From NCBI RefSeq assembly GCF_003334335.1, contig NZ_QOWQ01000141.1: DNA of 890 nucleotides. One strand, 5' to 3'. Position numbers and translations under genes: made by a program. Below are positions 1-890 of this stretch, one piece after another. Below the pieces are notes generated by a model that saw only the letters and a list, made by a program, of their open reading frames with translations, was not told the origin of the DNA and ran no database searches. The stretch is from Escherichia coli. Its GTDB lineage: Bacteria; Pseudomonadota; Gammaproteobacteria; Enterobacterales; Enterobacteriaceae. The stretch's first letter is position 1. Each line of letters starts with the position of its first letter.

Positions 1-77
<77 letters not shown>

Positions 78-106
78 CGGAGGATTCAGTATTCCCCGGA
101 CAACTC

Positions 107-112
107 AGGAGG
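107..112 (+). promoter_or_regulatory. Shine-Dalgarno (AGGAGG) for the CDS starting at 117
   Basis: Exact AGGAGG hexamer with a 4-nt spacer (AAAT) before ATG 117. Confidence 0.6.
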
Positions 113-116
113 AAAT

Positions 117-551
117 ATGCGAATTCTGAACTGTTATATGGCGAATGACAGCAAAGGCCATTTTGTTACGGCGAAAGAAGCTGCGAAGCACAACCGACAG
201 GACGTTTTGTGCTGTGTGTCCTGTGGATGCCCGTTAACACTTCAGCGGGGCAATGACGGACAACCACCGTGGTTTGAACATGACCAGATGACTGTCGCTG
301 AAAAAATCCTGCTGCGATGTACCTGGCTTGACCCGGCGGAGAAAGAGGCCCGTCGTTTGCATCTGCAGGGCATGACGGTTCCGGATTATACGGTGAAGGT
401 GAGAAAGTGGTTTTGTGTGATGTGTGACGAAGATTATGAGGGGGAAAAGTGCTGCCCACGCTGCGGTACCGGGGTATACAGCAGGGCGTGGGGGCGGCAG
501 GAGGTGCCGTCGGAAGATGCCAGGGCTGATAATCCGTTACAGAGGCTGTAA
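117..551 (+). CDS. Hypothetical cysteine-rich protein (144 aa) with zinc-ribbon-like CxxC / CPxCG motifs; function unknown
   Basis: ATG at 117 lies 4 nt after a perfect AGGAGG (107..112) and the frame runs to TAA at 549..551. The product has 11 Cys, with clusters CCVSCGC (aa 32-38) and CVMC-x8-CCPRCG (aa 100-117). The provided ORF track gives the same frame from a GTG at 48; I prefer 117 because of the Shine-Dalgarno. An alternative start is ATG at 138 (MANDSKG...). The frame is also open back to the 5' window edge, so an upstream start outside the window cannot be fully excluded. Confidence 0.75.
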   Translation: MRILNCYMANDSKGHFVTAKEAAKHNRQDVLCCVSCGCPLTLQRGNDGQPPWFEHDQMTVAEKILLRCTWLDPAEKEARRLHLQGMTVPDYTVKVRKWFCVMCDEDYEGEKCCPRCGTGVYSRAWGRQEVPSEDARADNPLQRL

Positions 552-787: not shown

Positions 788-838
788 CCAAATTCAACAG
801 GGATAAAATAGTGGTAAGCGTACAGCCTGAACCGTCTG

Positions 839-851
839 GTCAGAATCTGAC
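839..851. promoter_or_regulatory. 13-bp palindrome GTCAGA-a-TCTGAC; candidate operator for a dimeric DNA-binding protein
   Basis: Perfect 6-bp inverted arms around a single central base, in a region with no forward ORF leaving the window. It overlaps a weaker hairpin at 827..843, CTGA(a)CC-gtct-GGTCAG. Confidence 0.25.
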
Positions 852-864
852 GAATTAGACAAAG

Positions 865-876
865 TGGTGTCCACCA
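865..876. promoter_or_regulatory. 12-bp palindrome TGGTG-tc-CACCA; second candidate protein-binding site
   Basis: Perfect 5-bp inverted arms with a 2-bp spacer, 14 bp downstream of the 839..851 palindrome. Confidence 0.2.
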
Positions 877-890
877 AATAAGTAGTGGGA

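Follow-up and report, generated by a model that had tools for sequence, protein, structure and literature searches.

Does the N-terminal part of a small protein encoded on an Escherichia coli island share its origin with the zinc finger of the competence protein CoiA, and what would such a finger do beside a zinc ribbon rather than a nuclease? The stretch of DNA analysed here (the window, 890 bases) is part of an E. coli chromosomal island and matches strain EC11 over its full length at 99.8%. Its place, covered to at least 80%, is present in at least 1906 of the 5426 complete E. coli genomes. Between the two insertion-sequence ends lies one real gene, at 117–551 on the plus strand. The product falls into a protein cluster (P0001) of 2076 member sequences, and RefSeq calls it 'zinc-ribbon domain-containing protein'. 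The window is laid out as follows.

1–77, minus strand: end of an IS100 element, 77 bases, with a 28-nt inverted repeat at 50–77; outside the gene.
78–129, plus strand: 3' remnant of an upstream tandem paralog; its stop codon TGA (127–129) gives a 13-nt overlap with the start of the gene.
107–112, plus strand: Shine-Dalgarno-like AGGAGG, 4 nt ahead of the ATG at 117, as read from the sequence.
117–551, plus strand: coding sequence of 144 residues, ATG at 117 and TAA at 549–551; identical to RefSeq WP_001221615.1.
814–890, plus strand: left end of an IS66-family element, with the inverted repeat GTAAGCGTACAGCCTGAACCGT at 814–835; outside the gene.

The IS100 copy is 1954 bp long and holds istA/istB between inverted-repeat arms at 10124–10151 and 12050–12077 of L001. 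The IS66-family element lies further along the same sequence, where inverted repeats at 12813–12834 and 15080–15101 enclose tnpA/tnpB/tnpC; its 22-nt repeat starts with GTAAGCG, and 263 nt separate the stop codon of the gene from the IS66 end. In IS-free loci the match to the window begins only at about base 74. The IS100 element interrupts the upstream paralog of the tandem in its 3' part and splits the gene from the paralog and the operon; other strains have it ahead of the paralog (L017) or lack it (L016). Because IS100 cuts the gene off from its operon, this copy may have lost normal expression. Across the 890 bases, scans for promoters, terminators and Rfam families find nothing above chance.

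The defining feature of CoiA is a PD-(D/E)XK nuclease domain, PF06054 (PMC1189080), which is preceded by a small putative zinc finger and followed by a long C-terminal extension (bioRxiv 10.1101/2024.02.06.579203). It was recently shown to be a D-loop-processing, structure-specific ssDNA endonuclease in transformation, and it acts genetically with the RadA helicase. The initial annotation had seen in the 144-residue protein a pattern loosely reminiscent of the CoiA finger, and the residues it named are all in place. M8-A9-N10-D11-S12-K13-G14-H15-F16-V17 fits M-A-x-D-x-x-G-x-x-V, the knuckle reads C33-V-S-C36-G37-C-P-L40-T-L42-Q-R-G45, and W52-F53-E54-H55 stands where it was placed, so that 138–284 corresponds to M8–D56. 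The C-terminal zinc ribbon is also present, as CxxC...CxxC with C100, C103, C113 and C116. Counting the motifs from Met8 gave correct positions, but the protein starts at M1 and not at M8, since residues 1–7 (MRxLKCY) are kept across the family.

Two Pfam domains cover the protein, each matched over its full length and above threshold; the core that aligns with CoiA lies within the first of them.

126–383, plus strand: DUF7828 (PF25165), residues 4–89, E 9.3e-31, model positions 2–86 of 87.
135–344, plus strand: CoiA_N-like core, residues 7–76, aligned by hhalign to CoiA residues 2–62; it contains 138–284.
393–500, plus strand: C4 zinc ribbon, Zn_ribbon_11 (PF11682), residues 93–128, E 1.7e-18, model positions 1–36 of 37.

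The protein and both domains are thus already catalogued in RefSeq and Pfam, where Zn_ribbon_11 was earlier named DUF3279. The remaining Pfam matches are weak (DUF7830, PF25169, E 0.077; CoiA_N, PF25164, E 0.39). NCBIfam gives no match, and PHROGs and PADLOC give a few sub-threshold matches, all to uncharacterised families (best E 0.018). Literature searches with DUF7828, DUF3279, PF11682 and Zn_ribbon_11 return no paper on the family.

An exhaustive HMMER scan with residues 1–91 against 1.8 billion representatives finds 84 proteins at E<=0.001; fragments aside, nearly all are 105–171 residues long, and one is a 238-residue fusion. Relatives in AFDB come from Escherichia, Salmonella, Klebsiella, Citrobacter, Enterobacter, Serratia, Pectobacterium, Cedecea and Budvicia, and the Budvicia member A0A2C6DNN4 is named 'Competence protein' in UniProt. 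The family length of 128–160 residues is stable across Enterobacterales. In an alignment of 19 members with 25–85% identity (A1), C36, W52, F53, E54, H55 and C68 are invariant in the N-terminal domain and C33 is kept in at least 90% of the sequences; W98, C100, C103, Y107, G109, C113, C116 and G119 are invariant in the ribbon. Long repeat proteins (P0090, P0099, P0102, P0115, P0128 and P0130), matched by residues 32–90, were rejected as relatives: their E-values are inflated, because repeats of about 10 bits each are summed, and the repeats lack the Cys ligands.

Domain combinations vary in a few database entries. The 238-residue protein has two DUF7828 domains ahead of one ribbon, and among P0031, P0033, P0038, P0040, P0054 and P0086 there are mosaics whose N-terminal domain and ribbon come from different paralog types. 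The mosaics hint at recombination or gene conversion between paralogs; some may be assembly or frameshift artefacts.

Authentic CoiA sequences were collected by two routes. A search that started from a pneumococcal sequence leads to proteins named 'competence protein CoiA', which carry PF06054 and PF25164; many of the streptococcal ones also have a precomputed match to PF25165, that is, to DUF7828. A tblastn search of plasmid records leads to annotated CoiA-family genes from S. aureus, B. subtilis, Cytobacillus, Bacillus sp., Variovorax and Shinella. Of ten diverse CoiA N-termini, CoiA_N recognises all ten and DUF7830 nine at E<=0.001.

Pfam models connect the two groups unevenly. On the 144-residue protein, CoiA_N stays below threshold (E 0.39, 10.7 bits, residues 18–55, model positions 5–41 of 50); in the family, none of the 19 members is matched at E<=0.001 and four are at E<=0.1, the best at 2.7e-3. 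In the other direction, DUF7828 matches authentic CoiA: six of the ten N-termini reach E<=0.001, in a sample from Streptococcus, Staphylococcus, Bacillus and proteobacterial plasmids, with the best match (E 5.2e-6) aligning CoiA residues 1–49 to model positions 4–54. An HMM of the family N-terminal domain aligns with residues 2–48 of streptococcal CoiA at 14–22 bits, pairing 'ylaldskghivta...tCvsCgcpLvlhag...WFEH' with 'FVARDAKGNLVNA...TCPACGSRLRLRQG...HFAH'. This is the register that the initial annotation had proposed. Profile–profile comparison of A1 with the ten CoiA N-termini (A3) by hhalign gives a probability of 94.9%, E 4.7e-8 and a score of 46.8 over 59 columns, which places the region in a CoiA_N-like superfamily with CoiA_N, DUF7828 and, probably, DUF7830.

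Predicted structures point the same way. The AF2 prediction, made from an alignment of 34 family sequences without any CoiA, has a mean pLDDT of 85.6 and values above 92 over residues 1–80. It consists of strands 8–10, 16–18, 31–33, 39–43 and 52–55 and helices 19–24, 62–65 and 73–85; in this prediction DUF7828 is a zinc module rich in beta strands, with a helix after it. A fold search retrieves CoiA models, and the matches listed by Foldseek on afdb50 are family members only. In the predicted models the domain has the same fold as the CoiA N-terminal domain; PDB searches find no experimental structure for the DUF7828 or the CoiA N-domain family. The CoiA-like character of the N-terminal region is borne out by Pfam matches in both directions, by hhalign and by the fold search. 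Since CoiA_N gives only E 0.39 and pairwise BLAST is not significant, the link to CoiA rests on profiles and predicted structures. We consider it very probable that the DUF7828 module is a remote homologue of the CoiA N-terminal zinc finger, set in a different architecture.

The alignment with CoiA pairs the following residues.

213–215 and 222–224 (codons), plus strand: CxxC knuckle, C33 and C36, putative zinc ligands 1 and 2; aligned with the invariant C26 and C29 of CoiA.
270–281, plus strand: W52-F53-E54-H55, invariant in A1; aligned with H44-F45-A46-H47 of CoiA.
279–281, plus strand: H55, putative third zinc ligand; paired with H47 of CoiA.
318–320, plus strand: C68, putative fourth zinc ligand, invariant in A1; paired with C53 of CoiA, which is kept in nine of ten sequences.

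Both groups follow the pattern CxxC ... (H/W)FxH ... C, with C33, C36, H55 and C68 here and C26, C29, H47 and C53 in CoiA, where the shared Cys lies about six residues past HFAH. The sequence comparison suggests Cys-Cys-His-Cys as the putative ligand set common to both families. The likeness of WFEH to the HFxH of CoiA, noted at the outset, holds for the second His and fails for the first: H44 of CoiA is replaced by Trp (W52), which is invariant in DUF7828 members. This replacement calls the C2H2 label of CoiA into question, and the conserved positions suggest that the metal site of CoiA is Cys-Cys-His-Cys and not, as the literature has proposed, C2H2.

The surroundings of the gene are those of a CP4-like island. 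Six loci are informative, two from E. coli (EC11 and E2865) and four from other enterobacteria (L009, L010, L011 and L012); L014 and L015 share a fifth arrangement, of which each is one copy. In every locus a gene of 190–240 residues of the YagK/YfjJ or REP_ORF2-G2P (inovirus Gp2-like) type comes first, and the zinc gene, or a tandem pair, follows downstream of it on the same strand. In four loci a 70-residue AlpA gene stands between the YagK/YfjJ-type gene and the zinc gene. Upstream on the other strand there is an island GTPase gene, joined in some loci by DUF905, DUF932 and antirestriction genes. The downstream side differs from locus to locus: an OLD-TOPRIM ATPase with a UvrD helicase (Gabija-like) in L010, CTD1/MComp1/SMC-like genes in L011, Kiwa KwaA with type I HsdR in L014, an HsdR_N protein in L009, and insertion sequences in E. 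coli. As the upstream module is constant and the downstream side variable, the gene belongs to the conserved core of CP4-like integrative islands in Enterobacterales and borders a cargo hotspot; the region downstream looks like a hotspot for variable defence cargo that adjoins the YagK/YfjJ-AlpA core. In the literature on YagK/YfjJ-AlpA we found no paper that treats a zinc-ribbon gene as part of the module. The stretch of K-12 CP4-44 that we examined contains no homologue, and its pseudogenes yoeG, yoeH and yeeH, tried as candidates, do not match.

Where the locus is intact (L016), the upstream paralog, annotated 'putative zinc ribbon protein', occupies 4654–5055 and the gene 5043–5477, with a 13-nt overlap. 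The paralog is 25% identical and has the same two-domain plan. A second lineage, represented by L014, has its own tandem pair (4612–5001 and 5001–5717), overlapping by 1 nt. The gene often stands in such a pair. Tandem overlapping paralogs suggest translational coupling and perhaps a heteromer.

What the protein does can be proposed only conditionally. The open reading frame at 117–551 would encode a small non-enzymatic protein of two putative zinc-binding modules. In CoiA the finger leads into a PD-(D/E)XK nuclease; in the 144-residue protein it leads into a helix and a C4 ribbon. Such a protein would act by binding and without catalysis, because it has two independent zinc modules and no catalytic motif is detected, and because its gene has the same orientation as its paralog and the YagK/YfjJ-AlpA module, with partial translational coupling to them. 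Finger and ribbon would recognise either DNA or a protein partner from that module and so help with island regulation, excision or replication; the finger would serve in substrate or partner recognition, as is presumed for it beside the nuclease in CoiA. We propose a binding factor that assists island regulation, excision or replication tentatively, as a possible role. As its ligand, DNA and protein appear about equally probable. DNA may be bound, by analogy, since the CoiA finger adjoins a structure-specific ssDNA/D-loop endonuclease. The family, however, has a net charge near neutral and a pI of about 5.5–9, so that composition does not favour DNA binding, and as an analogy the function of the CoiA finger would carry over little.

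The same charge is among the points for a different role, in which the module binds proteins and not DNA, as an adaptor or decoy. Its partners could be host proteins of recombination or repair or the defence cargo next to it; alternatively, it could regulate these as a heterodimer with its tandem paralog. The translationally coupled paralogs in two lineages, the position of the gene beside variable defence cargo (Gabija-like, Kiwa KwaA, type I R-M) and the genetic tie of CoiA to the RadA helicase all fit this reading. However, no PADLOC match is significant, and the cargo varies and the zinc protein stays, which makes it unlikely that one particular cargo protein is its partner. An adaptor or decoy of this kind, with any of these partners, seems to us rather unlikely, though worth keeping in mind.

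A bolder version of DNA recognition would make the DUF7828/Zn_ribbon_11 protein a free-standing CoiA finger that binds ssDNA or branched (D-loop-like) DNA, or RadA/RecA, and thereby aids the island or modulates recombination. Island establishment or replication would then be promoted together with the Rep-like YagK/YfjJ protein, or host recombination would be modulated. If this were true, the CoiA finger would be an autonomous recognition module with a Cys-Cys-His-Cys site instead of the proposed C2H2. We regard this as improbable.

The initial annotation had allowed that the resemblance to CoiA could be coincidental. The likeness would then be convergent or generic, such as any small CxxC...H knuckle may show, and DUF7828 an unrelated zinc ribbon. 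CoiA_N indeed reaches only E 0.39 on the protein, and pairwise BLAST only E>=0.3. Zinc-ribbon families often cross-match weakly, and several did so here. BLAST and tblastn comparisons of eight CoiA proteins with the window are not significant; their weak N-terminal matches lie in register. Generic zinc-ribbon models, run on the ten CoiA N-termini, reach E<=0.001 in at most one. In 80 column shuffles of the CoiA alignment the hhalign score is 11.6 +/- 2.9 with a maximum of 21.9, and in 80 shuffles with the five Cys/His columns fixed it is 12.9 +/- 3.1 with a maximum of 21.8. Scores that stay so far below 46.8 with the ligands held in place indicate that the similarity exceeds the metal ligands. 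Coincidence, for which shuffle maxima of about 22 are the measure, does not account for the observed score, and convergence appears very unlikely to us; remote homology is the reading that we carry forward.

Homology of the finger does not make the protein a CoiA. Pfam finds no CoiA_nuc domain (PF06054) in the 144 residues, and tblastn with eight CoiA proteins detects no nuclease or C-terminal remnant in the window (best E 0.15). The protein and its family (128–160 residues) fall well short of the 260–390 residues or so of CoiA with its extended C-terminal region. No competence genes lie near the gene, which is set among a CP4-like island, YagK/YfjJ, AlpA and insertion sequences. The earlier description of the architecture, 144 residues with a zinc ribbon in place of the nuclease, is accurate; its suggestion of a truncated or re-shuffled protein stands in part, in that the domain plan is a different one, belonging to a stable and separately catalogued family (DUF7828 plus Zn_ribbon_11), and not that of a truncated CoiA. 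Decay of a full-length coiA into a pseudogene after loss of the nuclease might be suspected from the two insertion sequences that flank the gene in the window and from an island rich in pseudogenes. However, the plan of 128–160 residues and the invariant C4 ribbon are kept at 25–50% identity across genera (Escherichia, Salmonella, Klebsiella, Citrobacter, Serratia, Pectobacterium and others), no nuclease-like remnant follows in the window, where the reading frame stops 263 nt before the IS66 end, and full-length DUF7828–nuclease proteins are absent among the 84 representatives. The short two-domain plan, kept across genera, argues that the gene is not a decayed coiA, and we find such an origin highly implausible. 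A role as an RNA polymerase-related protein has next to nothing to recommend it, its sole support being the AFDB entry names by which many UniProt family entries are called 'DNA-directed RNA polymerase, beta subunit/140 kD subunit', whereas Pfam, NCBIfam and PDB searches find no such domain, the protein has 144 residues and RefSeq says only 'zinc-ribbon domain-containing protein'.

Taken as a whole, the explanation that combines a remotely homologous finger, a distinct architecture, a place in the island core and a binding role appears likely. It gives a domain relationship and a conserved position to a protein whose present annotation is just 'zinc ribbon' or, wrongly, an RNA polymerase subunit. 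The question of what the CoiA finger binds gains a simple handle in this free-standing and widespread relative, and the comparison points to the metal-site residues, Cys-Cys-His-Cys being common to both and the first His of CoiA not.

Measured against known systems, the 144-residue protein is a full member of the Enterobacterales proteins with Pfam DUF7828 and Zn_ribbon_11, from which it does not differ. Pfam DUF7830 (PF25169) cross-matches the same region, with nine of ten CoiA N-termini at E<=0.001 and three of 19 DUF7828 members at E<=0.1; it differs in reaching just E 0.077 on the 144-residue protein, and it probably belongs to the same superfamily as CoiA_N and DUF7828. The YagK/YfjJ-AlpA core, known from cryptic prophages and integrative islands of the CP4-like kind, has the gene as a conserved neighbour, downstream on the same strand, in six of six informative loci. 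With CoiA (PF25164 plus PF06054) the protein shares the N-terminal 50–60 residues: the A-x-D-x-x-G-x-x-V strand, the CxxCG..L.L..G knuckle, the F-x-H strand and the downstream Cys. Unlike CoiA, it has neither the PD-(D/E)XK nuclease nor the CoiA C-terminal region (144 residues against about 260–390), carries a 7-residue insert before the last Cys and Trp in place of H44, and is encoded on a gamma-proteobacterial mobile island and not in a competence regulon. It is a nuclease-less relative of CoiA that has the finger alone in common with it. A CoiA finger joined to a zinc ribbon, without the nuclease, in enterobacterial islands is a variant architecture, and it leaves current views standing.
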